Below, one piece after another: positions 3,034 to 63,524 of a DNA stretch of 64,000 nucleotides. Origin of the DNA: Planctomycetota bacterium (GTDB lineage Bacteria; Planctomycetota; UBA1135; GCA-002686595); NCBI GenBank assembly GCA_016795205.1, contig JAEUHZ010000045.1, forward strand, positions 1-64,000, read 5' to 3'. A model generated the notes under the pieces. It had not been told where the DNA came from and ran no database searches. It saw only the letters and a program-made list of their open reading frames with translations. Within the stretch, counting starts at the first letter, position 1. Each line of letters begins with the position of its first letter. A program made the position numbers and the translations under genes.

Positions 3034-3597
3034 ATGGCCGGTTCGATCCAGACCGTCTACCTCGTGTGCGCCGCCGCGGGCGGGACCGTGCTCCTGGCGC
3101 AGACGGCGCTCTTGCTCTTCGGGCACGGCGACGACGCCGAGGCCGGAGCGCACGACGCCGATCACGCCGATGCGACCCATGCCGACGCCGGCATGTCGCT
3201 GCTCTCCGTGCGCACGATCTCGGCCTTCCTGGCCTTCTTCGGACTGGCCGGCTGGGCGGGCACGCGCGCCGGCTGGGGCACGCTGCCGACGCTGGCGGCC
3301 GCTCTGGGCGCCGGATCCGTGATGCTCGTCGGCGTGGCCTGGCTCTTCAGCCTCCAGCGCAAGCTCACCGCGGTCGGCAACCTCGACCCGGCGGGTGCCG
3401 TGGGCAAGGTCGCACGCGTCTACCTGCGCATCCCGGGCGCGAACGGCGGCAAGGGCAAGATCCACGTCGTCGTCCAGGGCCGCACGGCCGAGTTGGCGGC
3501 CTTCACGCGGGGCGCGAGCGCGATCGACACCGGGGCCGAGGTGCGCGTCGTGCGCCAGGTCACGCCGGACACCTTCGAAGTCGAAGCGGTCGACTGA
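3034..3597 (+). CDS. NfeD-like membrane protein (short form, OB-fold C-terminus)
   Basis: 187 aa with N-terminal TM helices and a C-terminal beta-rich region (KIHVVVQGRTAELAAF...EVRVVRQV). Immediately upstream of flotillin, the classic nfeD-SPFH arrangement. Confidence 0.7.
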   Translation: MAGSIQTVYLVCAAAGGTVLLAQTALLLFGHGDDAEAGAHDADHADATHADAGMSLLSVRTISAFLAFFGLAGWAGTRAGWGTLPTLAAALGAGSVMLVGVAWLFSLQRKLTAVGNLDPAGAVGKVARVYLRIPGANGGKGKIHVVVQGRTAELAAFTRGASAIDTGAEVRVVRQVTPDTFEVEAVD

Positions 3598-3654: not shown

Positions 3655-5406
3655 ATGAAGCCTCTCTTCGCCCTGCTCCAGTCCGACGGCCTGGCCGAGC
3701 TGCCGCTGATCCTGATGGTGGTGCTCGGGATCATCGTGCTCCTGAGCTTCCTGCTCGTGATCGCGCGCCGCTACAAGCGCTGCCCGAGCAACCGGATCCT
3801 GGTCGTGTACGGCAAGACCGGCACCGGGCGGTCCTCCAAGTGCATCCACGGCGGTGGCATCTTCGTCTGGCCGCTGATCCAGAACTACGAGTACCTGGCC
3901 CTCGATCCCTTGCAGATCGAGATCCCGCTGCAAGGCGCGCTGTCGATCGAGAACATCCGCGTCAACGTGCCGTCGGTCTTCACCGTGGCGATCGGCACCG
4001 ACGAGGAGACGATGAACAACGCCTCGGTGCGCCTGCTGGGCCTCAAGACGCCCGACATCGTCAAGCAGGCCGAGGACATCATCTTCGGCCAACTGCGCCA
4101 GGTCATCGCGTCGATGCGCATCGACGAGATCAACCGCGACCGTGAGACGTTCCTGGAGAAGATCCAGAAGAACCTGGAGCCGGAGCTCAAGAAGATCGGC
4201 CTCGTGCTGATCAACGTGAACATCAAGGACATCACGGACGAGTCCGGCTACATCGAGGCCATCGGCCGCAAGGCCGCCTCCGAGGCCATCCAGCAGGCCG
4301 AGATCGACGTGGCGCAGCAGGTGCGCAAGGGCGCGATCGGCGTCGCCGAGGCCGACCGCGTCAAGGCCATCGAGGTCGCCAACAACGAGAAGCTGCGCGA
4401 CATGGGGGTCAAGGAGGCCGAGCGCGAGCGCGCCGTGCGCGTCGCCGACCTCGACAAGGACCGCAAGATCGGCGAGCAGACCGCGCTGTTCCAGGAGGAG
4501 GCGCAGGTGCGCGAGGCGGAGCGGCAGATGCGCATCGCCGTCGCCGAGGCCAACGCCAAGGCCGTGGCCGGCGAGAACACCAGCAAGGCCGCGGTGGCGG
4601 CCGCGAACGCCGAGCTGTCGGTGCGCGAGGCCGAGGCCCAGGCGCTCGCGATCCAGGGCGGGAACAAGGCGCGCGGGGCCATGGCGGCCGCCAACGCCGA
4701 GCTCAAGGTGCGCGAGGCCGAGGCCTATCAGTTGGGCGAGACGCGCACGCGGGAGGCGCAGGCCAAGGTGCTCGAGGCGCAGTACCTGGCCCAGGCCAAG
4801 GCTGCCGAGGCGCAAGGCAAGAAGGTCGAGGCCGAGAAGCGCGCCGAGCTCGAGTCGCTGGCGCGCGCCGTGAAGAGCCAGGTCATCGTCGAGGCCGAGG
4901 CCGAGGCCGAGAAGCGTCGCATCGAAGCCGAGGGTGAGGCGCGCGCCAACTTCGCGCGGCTCGAAGCCGAGGCGCGCGGCCAGTACGAGATCCTGGCCAA
5001 GAAGGGCGAGGGCCTCAAGAAGATCATCGAGAGCTGCGGCGGCGCGGACCACGCCTTCCGTCTGCTCATGCTGGAGCACATCGAGGAGCTCTCGAAGACC
5101 GCTGCTTCGGCGATCGCGAACATCAAGTTCGACAAGGTCGTCGTGTGGGACTCCGGGAGCGCCGCGGGCGGCGCCGGCGCCACGCAGAACTTCATCAAGG
5201 GCGTGGCGGGAGCGCTGCCGCCGATGATGCACATGATGAGCGAGATCGGCGGGGTCAAGATGCCCGAGTACTTCGGGACCCTGAGGAGCGACGAAGCACC
5301 GGCCGCCGAGCGCCCCGCGGCGTCCAGGACCCCCGAGCAGCCCGCGGCCCTGGGGGACGCGGCCGCCGCTGCCGGCCCGCGCCGCGCGCCGCCCGAGACG
5401 GACTGA
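3655..5406 (+). CDS. Flotillin-like SPFH/band-7 protein (FloT/YqiK family)
   Basis: 583 aa. N-terminal TM helix, SPFH domain, then a long Ala/Glu-rich coiled coil (AEAQ.. repeats) typical of flotillins. Confidence 0.85.
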   Translation: MKPLFALLQSDGLAELPLILMVVLGIIVLLSFLLVIARRYKRCPSNRILVVYGKTGTGRSSKCIHGGGIFVWPLIQNYEYLALDPLQIEIPLQGALSIENIRVNVPSVFTVAIGTDEETMNNASVRLLGLKTPDIVKQAEDIIFGQLRQVIASMRIDEINRDRETFLEKIQKNLEPELKKIGLVLINVNIKDITDESGYIEAIGRKAASEAIQQAEIDVAQQVRKGAIGVAEADRVKAIEVANNEKLRDMGVKEAERERAVRVADLDKDRKIGEQTALFQEEAQVREAERQMRIAVAEANAKAVAGENTSKAAVAAANAELSVREAEAQALAIQGGNKARGAMAAANAELKVREAEAYQLGETRTREAQAKVLEAQYLAQAKAAEAQGKKVEAEKRAELESLARAVKSQVIVEAEAEAEKRRIEAEGEARANFARLEAEARGQYEILAKKGEGLKKIIESCGGADHAFRLLMLEHIEELSKTAASAIANIKFDKVVVWDSGSAAGGAGATQNFIKGVAGALPPMMHMMSEIGGVKMPEYFGTLRSDEAPAAERPAASRTPEQPAALGDAAAAAGPRRAPPETD

Positions 5407-5414
5407 GGGCTCGC

Positions 5415-5550
5415 GCCCCGGAAAGTGCCGCGCCCCGGAAAGTGCCGCGCCCCGGACAGTGCCGCGCCCCGGACAGTGCCGCACGCCGGACAGTGCCGCA
5501 CGCCGGACAGTGCCGCACGCCGGACAGTGCCGCGACCCGGCCGCCTGCCG
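5415..5550. repeat. Tandem direct repeat: 7 copies of a 17-bp unit GCCCCGGA(A/C)AGTGCCGC plus one degenerate copy
   Basis: Read directly: gccccggaaagtgccgc x2, gccccggacagtgccgc x2, acgccggacagtgccgc x3, then gacccggccgcctgccgc. Starts 9 nt after the flotillin stop. Intergenic before pepP. Confidence 0.9.
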
Positions 5551-5664
5551 CGACCGCCGCCACACGCAGCGGGCCACAGGCCCGTCGAGCGCCGGCTCCC
5601 AGCGCGGTTCGCGGGTTCCGCCCCGTTCCGGTTCGGGCTCCGCGATCCTACCCTGCGCTCCACG

Positions 5665-7002
5665 ATGATCGACTTCGCCGCGCACCGACGCCGCTTCCTC
5701 GACGTGCTCTCGGCCCAACGCGCCGCGGCCGTGGTGGCCACGTCTCCCGCCCGGCTCCGCAATGCCGACACGGAGCACCGCTTCCGGCCCGACAGCGACT
5801 TCTGGTGGCTCACCGGCTTCGCCGAGCCCGAGAGCGTGCTGGTCCTGCTGCCAGCGCTCGAGCCGGAATCGCGAGCGCGCAGCGTGCTGTTCCTGCGGGA
5901 GCGCGACCGCGAGCGCGAGACCTGGAACGGGCGCCGACTCGGAGTCGAGTCCGCCGCCGGGGCGCTCCTGGTCGACGAGGCCCGAGCGATCGGGAAGCTC
6001 TGGACGGACCTCCCCGCGCTCCTGCGCGGCTACGAGCGCATCGTCTACCGCACGGGCGTCGACGAGGCGCGCGATCGCGAGTTGCTGGCGGTCCTCGCTC
6101 GCCTGCGGGCGACGGTCAAGGTCGCGGCCCCGCCTCCGGCGGCGATCCTCGACCCCCAGACCTCGTTGCACGAGCTGCGCCTGGTGAAGGACGACGGCGA
6201 GTTGGAGGCCATGCGTCGCGCGGCGCGCATCACGCGTGAGGCGCACGTGGCCGCCATGCGCGCCGCGCGGCCGGGCGTGAACGAGCGCGAGATCGACGCG
6301 CTCCTGGACGGCACGTTCAGGCGCCTGGGCGGCACGGGCGCGGCGTACACGAACATCGTGGCCGGCGGCGCCAACGCCACGATCCTCCACTACATCGAGA
6401 ATCGCGAGCCGCTGCGCGACGGCGAACTGCTGCTCGTCGACGCCGGCTGCGAGTACGACTGGTACGCCTCGGACGTCACGCGCACGTTCCCGGTCAACGG
6501 CCGCTTCTCGGCCGACCAACGCGCGGTCTACGAAATCGTGCTGGAGGCGCAGCTCGCCGCGATCGAGGCCGTGAAGCCCGGCCTGCCCTTCGACGCGCCG
6601 CACCGCGCGGCCGTCGCCAAGCTCGCCGCCGGGCTCGCGCGCCTGGGGGTGCTGGAAGGCCCGCCCGAGGAGGCCGCCACCCAGCAAGCCCTCCAGCGCT
6701 TCACGCTGCATCGCACCAGCCACTGGCTCGGACTCGACGTCCACGACTGCGGCGCGTACCTCGTGGATGGAGCGCCGCGCCCCCTGGCGCCCGGCATGGT
6801 GTTGACCGTCGAGCCCGGACTGTACTTCGCGGCGGACGACGAGACCGTCGACCCGCGCTGGCGCGGGATCGGCGTGCGCATCGAGGACGACGTGCTCGTC
6901 ACGCCCGACGGCCACGAGGTGCTCACCCGCGGGATCCCGAAGCTGGTGGCCGAGATCGAGGAAGCCTGCGGCGCGGCGCGCCTCCTGGGTGCCAGCCCGT
7001 GA
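5665..7002 (+). CDS. pepP: Xaa-Pro aminopeptidase (M24B, PepP)
   Basis: 445 aa. N-terminal creatinase/prolidase domain and C-terminal pita-bread fold. Metal-ligand motifs LLLVDAGCEYDWYASDVTRTFPV, HxxGLDVHD and GMVLTVEPGLY...RIEDDVLVT. Confidence 0.85.
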   Translation: MIDFAAHRRRFLDVLSAQRAAAVVATSPARLRNADTEHRFRPDSDFWWLTGFAEPESVLVLLPALEPESRARSVLFLRERDRERETWNGRRLGVESAAGALLVDEARAIGKLWTDLPALLRGYERIVYRTGVDEARDRELLAVLARLRATVKVAAPPPAAILDPQTSLHELRLVKDDGELEAMRRAARITREAHVAAMRAARPGVNEREIDALLDGTFRRLGGTGAAYTNIVAGGANATILHYIENREPLRDGELLLVDAGCEYDWYASDVTRTFPVNGRFSADQRAVYEIVLEAQLAAIEAVKPGLPFDAPHRAAVAKLAAGLARLGVLEGPPEEAATQQALQRFTLHRTSHWLGLDVHDCGAYLVDGAPRPLAPGMVLTVEPGLYFAADDETVDPRWRGIGVRIEDDVLVTPDGHEVLTRGIPKLVAEIEEACGAARLLGASP

Positions 7003-8083: not shown

Positions 8084-8159
8084 TGGTGACCGCGGTAGGG
8101 CTCGAACCTACGACCTGATGATTAAGAGTCACCTGCTCTACCGACTGAGCTACGCGGCC
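8084..8159 (-). tRNA. tRNA-Lys (anticodon CUU), encoded CCA
   Basis: Revcomp GGCCGCGTAGCTCAGTCGGTAGAGCAGGTGACTCTTAATCATCAGGTCGTAGGTTCGAGCCCTACCGCGGTCACCA. Anticodon loop CTCTTAA. Confidence 0.85.
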
Positions 8160-8224: not shown

Positions 8225-8300
<76 letters not shown>

Positions 8301-14337: not shown

Positions 14338-16008
14338 ATGGCCAAGCAGATGGTGTTCGAGACCGACGCGCGCGACGCAGTCCGGCGCGGCGTCGAGAAG
14401 CTCGCCAAGGCGGTCGTCACGACCCTCGGTCCCCGCGGTCGCAACGCAATCCTCGACAAGGGTTGGGGCGCACCCACGATCACGAAGGACGGCGTCACCG
14501 TCGCCGAGGAGATCCAGCTCCAGGATCCCTACGAGCACCTCGGGGCACAGCTCGTCAAGGAGGTCGCGAGCAAGACCAGCGACGTCGCTGGGGACGGCAC
14601 GACCACCGCGACGCTCCTGACCGAGGCCATCTTCACGCAGGGCCTGCGCGCCGTGACGGCCGGCGCCCATCCGGCGCGCCTGACCCAGGCGATCAAGGAC
14701 GGGGCCGCCGCCGTGTGCCAGAAGCTCGACGCTGCGGCCAAGAAGGTCGGCAAGAACGAGGAGATCCGCCAAGTCGCGACGATCTCGGCCAACAACGATC
14801 CCGAGGTCGGCCGACTCATCGCCGACGCGATGGAGAAGGTCGGCAAGGACGGCGTCATCACCGTCGAGGACGGCAAGACGCTGACGACCGAGGTCACGGT
14901 CGTGGAAGGCATGCAGTTCGACCGTGGCTTCCTCTCGCCGCACTTCGTCAACAGCCCCGAGACGATGGAGTGCGTGTACGACAAGCCCCTCATCCTGGTC
15001 TACGAGTCGAAGATCTCGTCGCTCGCCAAGCTCCTCCCGCTGCTGGAGAAGGTCAAGGCCGCCGGCCGGCCGCTGGTCATCATCGCCGAGGACATCGAGA
15101 GCGAGGCGCTCGCCACGCTGGTCGTGAACAAGCTGCGCGGCGTGATCCAGACGGTCGCCGTGAAGGCCCCCGGCTACGGCGATCGCCGCAAGGCGATGCT
15201 CGAGGACATCGCCGCGCTCACGGGCGCCAAGGCGGTCATGAAGGATCTCGGGATCGACCTCGACAACCTGACGATCCGTGACTTGGGCACCGCCAAGAAG
15301 GTCACCGTCGACGGCGACAACACCACGATCGTGGGCGGCGCAGGCGACAAGCAGGACGTGCAAGCGCGCGTCGAGCAAATCCGCGCGCAGGTCCAGGAGA
15401 CGACCTCGGACTACGACCGTGAGAAGCTCCAGGAGCGCCTGGCCAAGCTCACCGGCGGCATCGCCCAGATCAACGTCGGCGGCGCGACGGACACCGAGGT
15501 CAAGGAGCGCAAGGCCCTGATCGAGGATGCGCTGCACGCCACGCGTGCAGCGATCGAGGGCGGCGTCCTGCCGGGCGGCGGCACCGCGCTGCTGCGCGCG
15601 CGCTCGGTCCTCGCGGGCCTCCGGACGGAGCAGGACGAGGACTACGACATGGGCCTCGACATCCTGCACGAGGCGCTGGCCCGTCCGATCCAGCAGATCG
15701 CCCAGAACGCAGGGAAGGACGGCGCCGTCGTGGCGCACCGCGTCTTGCGCGAGAAGAAGGAGACCTGGGGCTACGACGCCTTGCGCGGCGAGTTCGGCGA
15801 CATGCTGGCGCTGGGCATCGTCGACCCGGCCAAGGTCACCAAGGCCGCGCTGAACAACGCGGTCAGCGTCGCGACGCTGCTGCTCACGACCGACGCGCTC
15901 ATCGTCTCCAAGCCCGAGCCCAAGAAGGCCGCCAAGGGCGGTCCGGGCGGGGAAGACATGGACGGCATGGGCGGCATGGGCGGCATGGGCGGTGGCATGG
16001 ACTTCTGA
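14338..16008 (+). CDS. groEL: Chaperonin GroEL (paralogue 1, with C-terminal GGM repeat tail)
   Basis: 556 aa [15 protein letters not shown]...[11 protein letters not shown]...ends [23 protein letters not shown]. No groES ORF in the 280 nt upstream. Confidence 0.95.
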
Positions 16009-20647: not shown

Positions 20648-23620
20648 TCATGGCACCTGGAGCACGGCGCGAGCCAGCTTCGCGACCTCGACCTCGACCT
20701 CGACCTCGCCCAGAGGCGTGGAGAGCCCCTGGCGGTCCCGCCGCGAGAGACGCAGCGCGTGCCGGCCCGGCACGATCGAGGCGACGGTCTCGGCGGGGTC
20801 CCACTTCGAGAGCCACACGCGGCGCAGGACGCGCTCGCCCTCCTGCTCACGCGCCACGATCTCGACCTGGTAGCCGTGGTCCTCGAGCAGCGCGCCTTGC
20901 AGCGTGAGCTCGACACGCCCCGCGCGGCGCAGCACGAAGTCTGCGCCGCCGCGTACCTCGCCCGGGGCCAGCGTGATCGGCTCCAGGCTGCGGCCCTCGA
21001 CGTCTTCCCCACGGGCCGAGACGGAGAGAGGCTGGCTGTCCACCAGGCCGCGCAGCAGGTAGTTCCCGCGGGCGTCCGTGCGCGCCGCGCGAGCTCCGCC
21101 CCCCGCGCGCCGCTCGAGCCTGGGCTGGCCGCGGTCGTCGACGCCCAGGACGAGCGGCTGGGGGGGCTCCATTTCGATCGCGGCACCCAGGCGCTCGACC
21201 TGGATGCGCACGCCGGCGATCGGCAGGCCCTCGGGGTCGGTCACGCGTCCGCGGATCTCGTTCGCGTCGAGCGTGAAGTCCGCGAGCTGCTCGCCCGCGC
21301 CCAGCACGAGGCGCTGCTCGAGCGGCATGCGGCGATCGGGGTGGTGCACGAGCGCGAGGTAGGTCCCGGTGCGACGGTTCTCGATCCGGTACTCGCCGCG
21401 GTGGTTGGTCCGCGCAGCGAACGGGTCCTGGCCGTCGCCCGCCCAAGTCCAGCCGGACTCGCGGCCCTCGACCCAGGGCACGAGCTTCACGACCGCGCCC
21501 TCCAGCACCCGCCCGCCCTCGCGCACGACGCCCGCGAGGGTGCCGCGTGGCGGGGCGACGAAGTCGATGCGCAGGTCGGAGGACTCGGCCAGCGAGACTT
21601 CGCGCCAGGGCTCCTCGCGGACGGCGCGGTCCGCGTCCGCCTCGAACCAGGCGGACTCGCCGTCCTCGAGCTCGAGGCGGAAGGCGTGGACGCCGCCCTC
21701 GAGCGCTTCGAAACGCGCTTCGCCGCGCCCGTCGGAGAGCACGCGAGCAAAGCGCTCCTGGCCGCGGTCGACCGGCAGCCGGGCCGGACGGTGACCGACC
21801 GGCGCGCCAGCCACGGCGCGACCCGCGCCGTCGTGCACGACGACGGTGACGCGCGCGCCGCGGCGCAGGACCAGGCGCGCGGCGTGGTCCGCGTCGCGCG
21901 GCTGCCGCGCTTCGACGGCCACGGCCGGTGCGAAGCCGGGAGCCGTGGCCGTGAGGCGCGCGAGCCGACCGGGGTAGCCGGCCAGCACGGCGCGGCCGTC
22001 CTCGTCCGTGCGCGCGGTGCGCACCTGCACCTCGCCCGAGAGATCCTGGCGGTCGGGGGTTCGGGCCCACTGCTCGAGCCGCTCGGGGCCCTCCGCCGTG
22101 ACCAGCACGCGCGCGCCCTCGACGGCCAGGTCCTGCTCGTCGACCACCGTGATCACCAGCCGGCGCTCGGCGACGACCCGGATCTCGCCCAGGTCGATCT
22201 CTGTCCCGTCGACCAACACCAGGTCCTTGCGCTCGAAGTCCACGCGCCCCGGAGCCGAGATGCGCAACCAGGCCGGGCGCCCCGGCGGCGGCGCGCGCGG
22301 TTCCGCGCAGCGCAGCTCGCCTCCCGGCCAGGCGCGTTGGACCTCGTTGCGCTCGTCGCGCAGCACCCGGAAGCGCCCGACGCCCCACCACACGACGAAC
22401 TCCTCGAGGGGCTCGCCGGTCGCGTCGTCGACGACCCGCGCCTTGAGGCCCGCGTCGGCGTCGACGACGAACTCCATCGAGGACGAGGGCGCACTGACAT
22501 TGCGCGCGCCGGCCACGTGCCAGACCTCCCCGCGCTTCACCGCAAGCGTCAGCCGGTAGGCCTCTCCGGCGAGGAGCCCCTCGACGCGGAAGGTCCCGTC
22601 GGGTCCCACGACCGCCGTGCGTGGCCGCGCCTCGATCACGGCGTCCCCGTCCTCAGGCTGTGGCTCCTCGGTCGAGGCCTGGGTCGCATCCGCTGCCGGC
22701 GCAAGGCGGCGCGCCACGACACGCATCGCGCCGGCCAGGACGCCGGGCTTCAGGCGCACGCGACCCGAGATCGCGGCCCCGGGCTCGAGCCGGACGACGA
22801 AGCCCGCGAGCTCCTCGCCCGCTCGCTGCGTGCGGCCGGCGACGCGCGCCAGCGCCGAGCCCTCGCGCACGAACAGCAGCTCGAAGGGCCCCGGCGCGAG
22901 CTCGTCGACGCGGAATCGTCCGGCCGCGTCCGTCTCGGCCACCGGCACGCCGTGGCCGGGGATCGAGAGCGCGCCGCCCGACGCCAGCGCGTCGGCCGCC
23001 ACGAGCACGCGCACGCCCGGGGCCGGCGCGCCGCCGGCCTGCAGCACGACGCCCGCGACGGCCGCCCCGGGATCGAGCGCGATGTCGCCCAAGTCCAAGT
23101 CGTCCTGGCGCAGCTCGCCCAGCGCTTCACGGTACGTCGGCGCGCGGCCCGCGGCGCGTGCCACGAGCCGCACGCGCCCGGGGAGCAGCGCGTCGAACGC
23201 GAAGCGCCCCTCGGCGTCCGTCTCGGCGCGCGCGACGTCGAGCCAGCGGCCGGCGAAGGCCTCCCGCTCCAGGTCGAGCGGCACGCGTGCCCATTGCGAG
23301 CTCGTCGTGGCCCACACGCGCGCCCCGCCCAGCGGGCGGCCCGCCGCGTCGACGACGCGCCCGGTGACGCGCGGGCGGGGCTTCGGTCGGCGCCGCGGGA
23401 CGAGGGCGGGCTCGGGCACAGGCTCGATCGCCGTGCGTGTCGGGCGCGCGGCGCCTGCGCCGGGCTCCGGATCGAGCGCCGCGCCGGTCGACTCCGGACC
23501 GACGCCCACGCGGCCCGCAGCCAGGCTCGCGCGCGAGCCGGCACCAGGGTCGAGCAGGGCCAGTGCAGCGATGAGGCCGGCGGCCAGCAGCGCCAGGAGG
23601 ACGAGAGGGCGTGAGCGCAC
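20648..23620 (-). CDS. Large secreted protein built of ~10 tandem carboxypeptidase-regulatory-like (CarboxypepD_reg/Ig-like beta-sandwich) domains. Putative GTG start.
   Basis: 990 aa. Recurring ~85-aa units of type GRVVDxxGxPxxGArVxv...TDAxGRFxxxxLxPGxxxL (for example VTGRVVDAAGRPLGGARVWA...TDAEGRFAFDALLPGRVRLVA). Signal-like N-terminus (V)RSRPLVLLALLAAGLIAALALL chosen over the Arg-rich upstream ATG. Confidence 0.7.
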   Translation of the reverse strand: MRSRPLVLLALLAAGLIAALALLDPGAGSRASLAAGRVGVGPESTGAALDPEPGAGAARPTRTAIEPVPEPALVPRRRPKPRPRVTGRVVDAAGRPLGGARVWATTSSQWARVPLDLEREAFAGRWLDVARAETDAEGRFAFDALLPGRVRLVARAAGRAPTYREALGELRQDDLDLGDIALDPGAAVAGVVLQAGGAPAPGVRVLVAADALASGGALSIPGHGVPVAETDAAGRFRVDELAPGPFELLFVREGSALARVAGRTQRAGEELAGFVVRLEPGAAISGRVRLKPGVLAGAMRVVARRLAPAADATQASTEEPQPEDGDAVIEARPRTAVVGPDGTFRVEGLLAGEAYRLTLAVKRGEVWHVAGARNVSAPSSSMEFVVDADAGLKARVVDDATGEPLEEFVVWWGVGRFRVLRDERNEVQRAWPGGELRCAEPRAPPPGRPAWLRISAPGRVDFERKDLVLVDGTEIDLGEIRVVAERRLVITVVDEQDLAVEGARVLVTAEGPERLEQWARTPDRQDLSGEVQVRTARTDEDGRAVLAGYPGRLARLTATAPGFAPAVAVEARQPRDADHAARLVLRRGARVTVVVHDGAGRAVAGAPVGHRPARLPVDRGQERFARVLSDGRGEARFEALEGGVHAFRLELEDGESAWFEADADRAVREEPWREVSLAESSDLRIDFVAPPRGTLAGVVREGGRVLEGAVVKLVPWVEGRESGWTWAGDGQDPFAARTNHRGEYRIENRRTGTYLALVHHPDRRMPLEQRLVLGAGEQLADFTLDANEIRGRVTDPEGLPIAGVRIQVERLGAAIEMEPPQPLVLGVDDRGQPRLERRAGGGARAARTDARGNYLLRGLVDSQPLSVSARGEDVEGRSLEPITLAPGEVRGGADFVLRRAGRVELTLQGALLEDHGYQVEIVAREQEGERVLRRVWLSKWDPAETVASIVPGRHALRLSRRDRQGLSTPLGEVEVEVEVAKLARAVLQVP

Positions 23621-60670: not shown

Positions 60671-63505
<2,835 letters not shown>

Positions 63506-63524
63506 GTGAGCCGCAGAGCATACG

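Follow-up and report, generated by a model that had tools for sequence, protein, structure and literature searches.

The flotillin-pepP locus

The window, the whole 64-kb stretch of DNA that we analysed, carries a gene for an SPFH/flotillin family protein of 583 aa (3655..5406, + strand; Pfam Band_7/SPFH, 1e-27). It is followed on the same strand by pepP, encoding an Xaa-Pro aminopeptidase of 445 aa (5665..7002; Pfam Peptidase_M24, 1e-64, and AMP_N, 2e-29). A 187-aa ORF (3034-3597) lies 5' of flotillin. Its counterpart in related contigs has a weak NfeD_TM match, and we take the two adjacent genes to be the usual nfeD-flotillin pairing. The neighbourhood consists of the nfeD-like gene, flotillin, pepP, tRNAs, frr, pyrH and tsf, and its order is that of relatives that lack the repeat array described below. 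Flotillin homologues place the organism in Planctomycetota. Three tRNA genes, all on the - strand, are located at 4-78, 8087-8159 and 8228-8300 of the window; those at ~8.1-8.3 kb lie between the pepP-side block and frr/pyrH/tsf and are conserved in the lineages L013 and L024. Further along, at 63405-63510 on the - strand, there is a TPP riboswitch (Rfam RF00059), whose 54.9 bits narrowly exceed the gathering score of 54.3.

The C-terminal tail of flotillin (DNA 5283-5403) is of low complexity and rich in Ala, Pro and Arg, and its DNA cannot be aligned between lineages. The last five codons of the gene, PPETD-stop, are nearly invariant across lineages. Flotillin and pepP share a reading frame, with 86 intervening codons free of stops. 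The spacer is open in all three frames, and a stop-free pepP frame also arises in 44% of spacer shuffles.

At the pepP end of the spacer, positional conservation reveals a promoter-like motif (5626..5654, + strand), composed of a -35-like TTCCG at 5626-5630 and a -10-like TACCCT at 5649-5654. In the window, the motif is intact and located downstream of the array, and TACCCT ends 10 nt 5' of the pepP ATG. The general pattern, TTCC[CG]-N18-TA[CG]NCT, ends 7-10 nt 5' of the pepP ATG in six of ten lineages (the window, L012, L013, L014, L024 and L037). Elsewhere, a scan of both strands of 285 kb gave one match (window 44324). These same sequences served to derive the pattern, and its support is the fixed position that it keeps in otherwise unalignable DNA. 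This conservation suggests that TTCCG-N18-TACCCT could be a dedicated pepP promoter, from which transcription would give a very short or absent leader and a nearly leaderless mRNA. By eye, pepP has no obvious Shine-Dalgarno-like sequence. A search of 5000-6000 for sigma-70-like promoters and for terminators made of a hairpin and a T-tract found neither.

A GC hairpin, CGGGCC-ACA-GGCCCG (5568..5585, + strand), is present in both the MFE and the centroid structures of the spacer and stands directly 3' of the last decayed repeat copy. The hairpin, which lacks a U-tract and is not conserved, may be the end of the flotillin transcript.

A tandem array of seven 17-nt units

Seven contiguous 17-nt units in exact register fill 5415-5533 of the flotillin-pepP gap. 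This minisatellite core (5415..5533, neither strand assigned) is evident in the sequence and detected by TRF. Three variants make it up: unit A, GCCCCGGAAAGTGCCGC, in two copies; unit B, GCCCCGGACAGTGCCGC, in two copies; and unit C, ACGCCGGACAGTGCCGC, in three copies. They are ordered AA-BB-CCC, and copies within a block are 100% identical. The differences between the units are additive (A-B 1, B-C 2, A-C 3), and this series parallels the order of the units along the DNA. Unit positions 4-8 and 10-17 are invariant in all seven copies.

TRF reports the array at 5412-5540 with a period of 17, 7.6 copies, 94% matches, 0% indels and a score of 195. This is the highest of the 117 rows that the program returned for the 64-kb window, the runner-up scoring 70. 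When the window was shuffled 100 times with its dinucleotide composition preserved, the best TRF score had a median of 64 and a maximum of 110. The 72-80% G+C composition therefore does not explain the array.

At its 3' end, the array continues into two decayed copies (5534..5567, neither strand assigned), which were aligned by eye. The first, D, is GACCCGGCCGCCTGCCGC, 18 nt long (5534-5551). In the by-eye alignment, its 5' half is nearer to unit B (6/7) than to unit C (4/7). The second, E, is GACCGCCGCCACACGC, 16 nt long (5552-5567), and its assignment, also made by eye, is tentative. The array lies wholly 5' of the promoter-like block, where the spacer is not conserved.

These results agree with much of the initial annotation, which had described a 17-bp array of seven and a half copies at 5415-5550 between flotillin and pepP. 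Its existence, coordinates and copy count were all correct, as judged from the sequence and from the TRF score of 195 against the shuffle maximum of 110, and Pfam agrees with the flanking genes. The array starts at the 9th nt past the flotillin stop codon (5404-5406), and the pepP ATG (5665) lies 115 nt beyond 5550. The three subtypes in 2+2+3 blocks are exact, and the stepwise duplication proposed for them predicts the block pattern that is seen. We also agree that the array is not a CRISPR, its units being contiguous and without spacers, and that it is non-coding. The length of the unit is not divisible by 3, and the gene ends on either side are fixed by the termini of the orthologues, PPETD* and MI...

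Translation of the array through the ORF at 5425-7002, which is in frame with pepP, was considered and rejected. The orthologues set the start of pepP (MI..) at 5665, and the 17-nt unit shifts the frame with each copy. Long ORFs that cross the array, this one on the + strand and several on the - strand, are artefacts of high GC content. Two other near-perfect repeats in the window, CATGGGCGG x4.0 at 15957-15992 and CGACCT x4.3 at 20683-20708, have units that are multiples of 3, and they are probably coding amino-acid repeats.

The spacer in related lineages

Eleven related lineages were picked by their flotillin homologues, which share 75-97% amino-acid identity. Searches for exact copies of the flotillin and pepP proteins found none; the best flotillin relative aligns over 87% of the length at 97% amino-acid identity and has 86% nucleotide identity. 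The closest relative available is L012 (Logan SRR24928197_56474), with a flotillin gene of 86% nucleotide identity. The succession of flotillin and pepP is retained in nine of the related lineages, and synteny is broken in L040. The remaining neighbours (tRNAs, frr, pyrH and tsf) are collinear with those of the relatives. Between flotillin and pepP, blastn homology to the relatives ends in the flotillin tail (about 5283-5315) and restarts exactly at the pepP ATG (5664/5665). This break indicates that the spacer is fast-evolving.

The length of the gap varies widely. It is 4 nt in L042, 39 nt in L041, 61 nt in L039, 114 nt in L037, 123 nt in L013 and 150 nt in L024, and it is 143 nt in L014-L023, identical in ten contigs from different samples. 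The gap is 220 nt in L038, which has an unrelated 36-nt array, and 1847 nt in L012, which has a 1.85-kb insert, compared with 258 nt in the window. The 17-nt array was found in none of the nine syntenic related spacers. A progenitor of the unit was sought in the orthologous spacers, and the best ungapped matches, 11-12/17, were no better than those in control segments of the same locus. With nine relatives free of the 17-nt array, the comparison of spacer lengths shows that the array accounts for nearly all of the extra spacer length and is a lineage-specific gain. The 4- and 39-nt gaps of the distant relatives L042 and L041 point to ancestral co-transcription of flotillin and pepP. The two genes were probably an operon in the ancestor, and the gap has since been enlarged in the clade of the window.

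Two relatives have other inserts at the same position. The array in L038 (L038:4691-4868; GCA_031400875.1, JANNQS010000033.1) has a period of 36, 4.9 copies, 97% matches and a TRF score of 335. The flotillin of L038, an independent NCBI assembly, shares 84% identity with that of the window. The L038 array occupies the orthologous position and begins within the stop codon of flotillin. The unit, GATGCGCTTGCGCATCAGTCCACCAGCTCTTCTCCC, is unrelated to the 17-nt unit. A shared GGGCTCGC...CTGCCGC between the window and L038 was considered and set aside; by our estimate it is within chance for such GC-rich sequence. The L038 array is strongly structured (RNA fold z = -8.4), with five hairpins (GATGCGC-TT-GCGCATC), each followed by a pyrimidine tract. 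In the predicted fold, it looks like five repeated terminator-like units. In L012, the insert (L012:2524-4370, 1.85 kb) contains two minus-strand ORFs of 158 and 231 aa. A mobile-element origin for this insert gained no support; neither ORF has a Pfam match.

Searches for other copies and for RNA structure

Further copies of the unit were sought in the 64-kb window with a 14-nt core, CCGGAMAGTGCCGC, allowing ≤2 mismatches. Nine matches were found: seven are the array itself, and the two outside it compare with 4.05 expected by chance. A 10-nt core of the unit is likewise not enriched elsewhere in the window. Beyond the window, a pattern of 1.3 units that spans the unit junction was run over genome, metagenome and viral contigs. 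It matched 11 loci in 596 Gb of species-representative genomes and 12 loci in 241 M metagenome records, with no tandem copy in either collection, and it had no match in the viral contigs. Each of the 11 + 12 loci has a single match and no second core motif, lies in coding-looking sequence and belongs to an unrelated taxon; these are chance matches only. A blastn search with the array region gave no match to plasmids and phages, a result to be read with the caveat of the BLAST low-complexity filter. A dispersed repeat family was rejected on these searches, which covered 64 kb of the source genome together with the collections and gave chance matches alone. The REP-like family that the initial annotation had wanted looked for with the 17-mer was thus found neither in the window nor in the genome, metagenome, viral, plasmid and phage collections.

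It had also been suggested that the array forms a structure at a transcript 3' end. Our data do not bear this out. The folding energies show no stability beyond that of shuffled sequences, with z = +0.05 for the whole spacer, -0.72 for the + strand of the array and +2.66 for its - strand. An inverted-repeat scan found no inverted repeats inside the array, and there is no terminator-like site. Rfam has nothing at the array, whether the whole window is searched at the gathering threshold or 5300-5750 at E ≤ 10. A G-quadruplex or i-motif was judged unlikely: the four GGGG/CCCC tracts, in the A and B units, are spaced by 17 nt and would need 13-nt loops. A sigma-54 promoter on the minus strand (GGCAC-N..-GC) was rejected as well. 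By eye, its GG-to-GC spacing is one base over the -24/-12 consensus, and such a promoter would also point antisense into flotillin.

Origin of the array

We consider it likely that the array is a young, non-coding and neutral minisatellite, private to its lineage and probably polymorphic in length. The founder would have been a B-like unit, from which unit C would have arisen by two substitutions and unit A by one. Each variant would then have been copied beside itself in place, as single 17-nt units, by replication slippage or by unequal exchange between sister chromosomes. Identical copies within blocks, together with additive and spatially ordered differences between them, are what adjacent single-unit duplication predicts. 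The duplications would be recent, with no substitutions accumulated since, and older copies would have been left to decay at the 3' end. The process may have taken place in a part of the spacer that is under no constraint on sequence or length.

The array would do nothing that depends on its sequence. Its effect would be to lengthen the spacer from ~110-140 nt to 258 nt, leaving the promoter-like block and the start of pepP intact. The neutrality proposed here is argued from an absence of evidence. The array is probably transcribed, either as the 3' untranslated tail of the flotillin mRNA or as inter-cistronic RNA, and its copy number is expected to vary between strains.

Alternative explanations

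The presence of an unrelated array in L038 raises the question of whether this position is special. In the 64-kb window and ~78 kb of non-redundant related loci, only two arrays have a TRF score >100, and both are in the flotillin-pepP spacer. At typical densities of bacterial satellites (median 0-3 per Mb, PMC6749651), finding a second array in so short a spacer is somewhat unexpected. How surprising it is depends on the background rate, and the figures are rough estimates. For ~700 nt of orthologous spacers and a uniform 4 arrays/Mb, p is ~0.003. The chance is ~0.03 if arrays are confined to intergenic DNA, and ~0.17 if the rate is taken, with bias, from the window itself (~1 array per 50 spacers). 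The recurrence is only suggestive of a spacer prone to length change, and an unconstrained spacer explains it about equally well. Together with the 1.85-kb insert of L012 in the same gap, the second array could mean that the position is special for mechanistic or selective reasons, not merely unconstrained.

If it were, the gap itself might be selected and tunable. Arrays of any sequence would uncouple pepP from the transcription or translation of flotillin, or insulate the pepP promoter from read-through; they would arise and persist here repeatedly, and their copy number would set the degree of uncoupling. This proposal is consistent with the unrelated arrays that the window and L038 (36 nt x 4.9) have at one position. 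In addition, the 4- and 39-nt gaps imply an ancestral operon, while the closer clade combines gaps of 61-258 nt with the conserved promoter-like motif, and the L038 array is strongly folded (z = -8.4) and looks like a series of terminator-like units. However, the window array has no hairpin or terminator character, and an array is absent from seven of the nine other syntenic lineages. Statistically, the recurrence is weak as well (rough p ~0.003-0.17), and an unconstrained spacer accounts for it equally well. We regard a selected gap as unlikely, although it is the main rival to a neutral minisatellite. We give somewhat less credence still to the full form of the proposal, in which the gap after flotillin is a recurrent birthplace of tandem arrays in the clade and copy number tunes the uncoupling of pepP from the nfeD-flotillin operon. 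That form draws on the window array, the hairpin-containing array of L038 and the 1.85-kb insertion of L012. If true, it would amount to an evolvable, sequence-independent 'spacer rheostat' between the cistrons of an ancestral operon.

The initial annotation had also raised a protein-binding array. In such a case, each unit would be bound by a protein, and occupancy would scale with copy number. The units might serve pepP as an operator or as upstream activating sites, or they might form an array of the nucleoid or iteron type. The constancy of unit positions 4-8 and 10-17 would fit a binding site, and iterons and operators are typically 17-22 bp in size. The array would also lie ~110-250 nt 5' of the inferred pepP transcription start, a workable distance for an activator. 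But recent duplication alone would leave these positions invariant. The unit is non-palindromic, and 17-bp sites placed end to end would face different sides of the helix. No other promoter in the 64 kb has the motif, which is not enriched there. No lineage-specific gene adjoins the array, the neighbourhood holds no replication gene or lineage-specific regulator, and its gene order is that of relatives without the array. The array is absent from all nine orthologous spacers, so no conserved regulatory circuit uses it. Taken together, these observations make a binding function improbable.

The array might instead act as RNA, in the 3' UTR of flotillin or between the cistrons. There it could determine RNA stability, be a site of processing, load Rho or serve, through its repeats, as the precursor of an sRNA. 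The array begins 8 nt past the stop codon and lies upstream of the GC hairpin at 5568-5585, a position from which we infer that it is probably transcribed with flotillin. On the + strand, the seven units have more C than G (51 vs 42). Sites of Rho utilisation are typically G-poor, but the G content of the units is 35%, which is not G-poor. Moreover, the fold energies equal those of shuffles, Rfam gives no match at E ≤ 10, and the array is found in no relative. An RNA element is, in our judgement, very improbable.

Finally, short tandem repeats are prone to mis-assembly, but an array or copy number made or distorted by the assembler is hardly credible when the array is only ~130-150 nt long and within reach of single short reads, three ordered variants and decayed copies are not what assemblers invent, and an analogous array is present in the independent assembly of L038.

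Comparison with known repeat systems

The minisatellite that we favour can be set beside several kinds of bacterial repeats, and it belongs to none of the CRISPR, contingency-locus, REP, MIRU, intrinsic-terminator or iteron classes. Like contingency loci, it has head-to-tail copies whose number slippage can alter, and the initial annotation had accordingly proposed a phase-variable element. The repeats of contingency loci, however, have units of 1-9 nt and lie within a reading frame or between or beside the -35 and -10 elements, where one step switches expression. The present array is outside the coding sequences, at least 92 nt 5' of the inferred pepP -35-like element (~58 nt when the decayed copies are included), which is the wrong place for slippage repeats that switch a gene.

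The array shares with REP and BIME elements an intergenic location, 3' of a stop codon and between genes of the same orientation. REPs, however, are palindromes that number tens to hundreds in a genome, whereas the unit of the array is non-palindromic, and neither the window nor the collections searched contain a further copy of it. Iterons are also direct repeats of ~17-22 bp in several copies. In contrast to them, the array is accompanied by no initiator gene, AT-rich region or DnaA boxes; it lies in a housekeeping neighbourhood and is absent from the relatives.

The likeness to MIRU-VNTR loci is closer in its setting. In both cases, a GC-rich genome has tandem repeats that separate genes of the same orientation in probable operons and abut the gene ends, and the L038 array even starts inside a stop codon. 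MIRUs, however, are dispersed and apparently mobile, and their larger units contain a short ORF whose translation is coupled to that of the adjacent gene (PMC12548453). The array is a single locus with a 17-nt unit; it has no signal of a coupled ORF, and it overlaps neither the start nor the stop of flotillin or pepP.

The best counterpart is the unique satellite. For SATFIND, a satellite is a unit of 10-260 nt that is repeated in tandem at least 4 times and has the same length in at least 60% of its copies (PMC6749651). With seven equal 17-nt units, the array is a satellite by this definition. It is also unique, having no other copy in the 64-kb window and no tandem match in the collections searched. 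According to Subirana & Messeguer 2019, most bacteria have 0-3 satellites per Mb (median), and unique sequences, which 'developed spontaneously', make up about 40% of the satellites in bacteria (PMC6749651). The array resembles these unique satellites and VNTR loci (PMC6749651; MLVA typing) in being short (<1.5 kb) and intergenic, with a unit that is not a multiple of 3. As in unique satellites, its sequence is unrelated to other repeats, and its blocks of variants are typical of slippage. The practical hallmark of a VNTR locus is polymorphism in copy number, whereas the array is known from one sequence. To our knowledge, no such loci have been described for an uncultured-type, high-GC planctomycete.

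In this light, the array is one more ordinary unique bacterial minisatellite, and at most a strain-typing marker for its lineage. It is also a small, clean case of the birth of a repeat in situ, in which AA-BB-CCC blocks and decayed copies at one end are preserved together. The possible recurrence of unrelated arrays at this position in related lineages would, if confirmed, help to explain the sites and causes of tandem-repeat formation in compact bacterial genomes.
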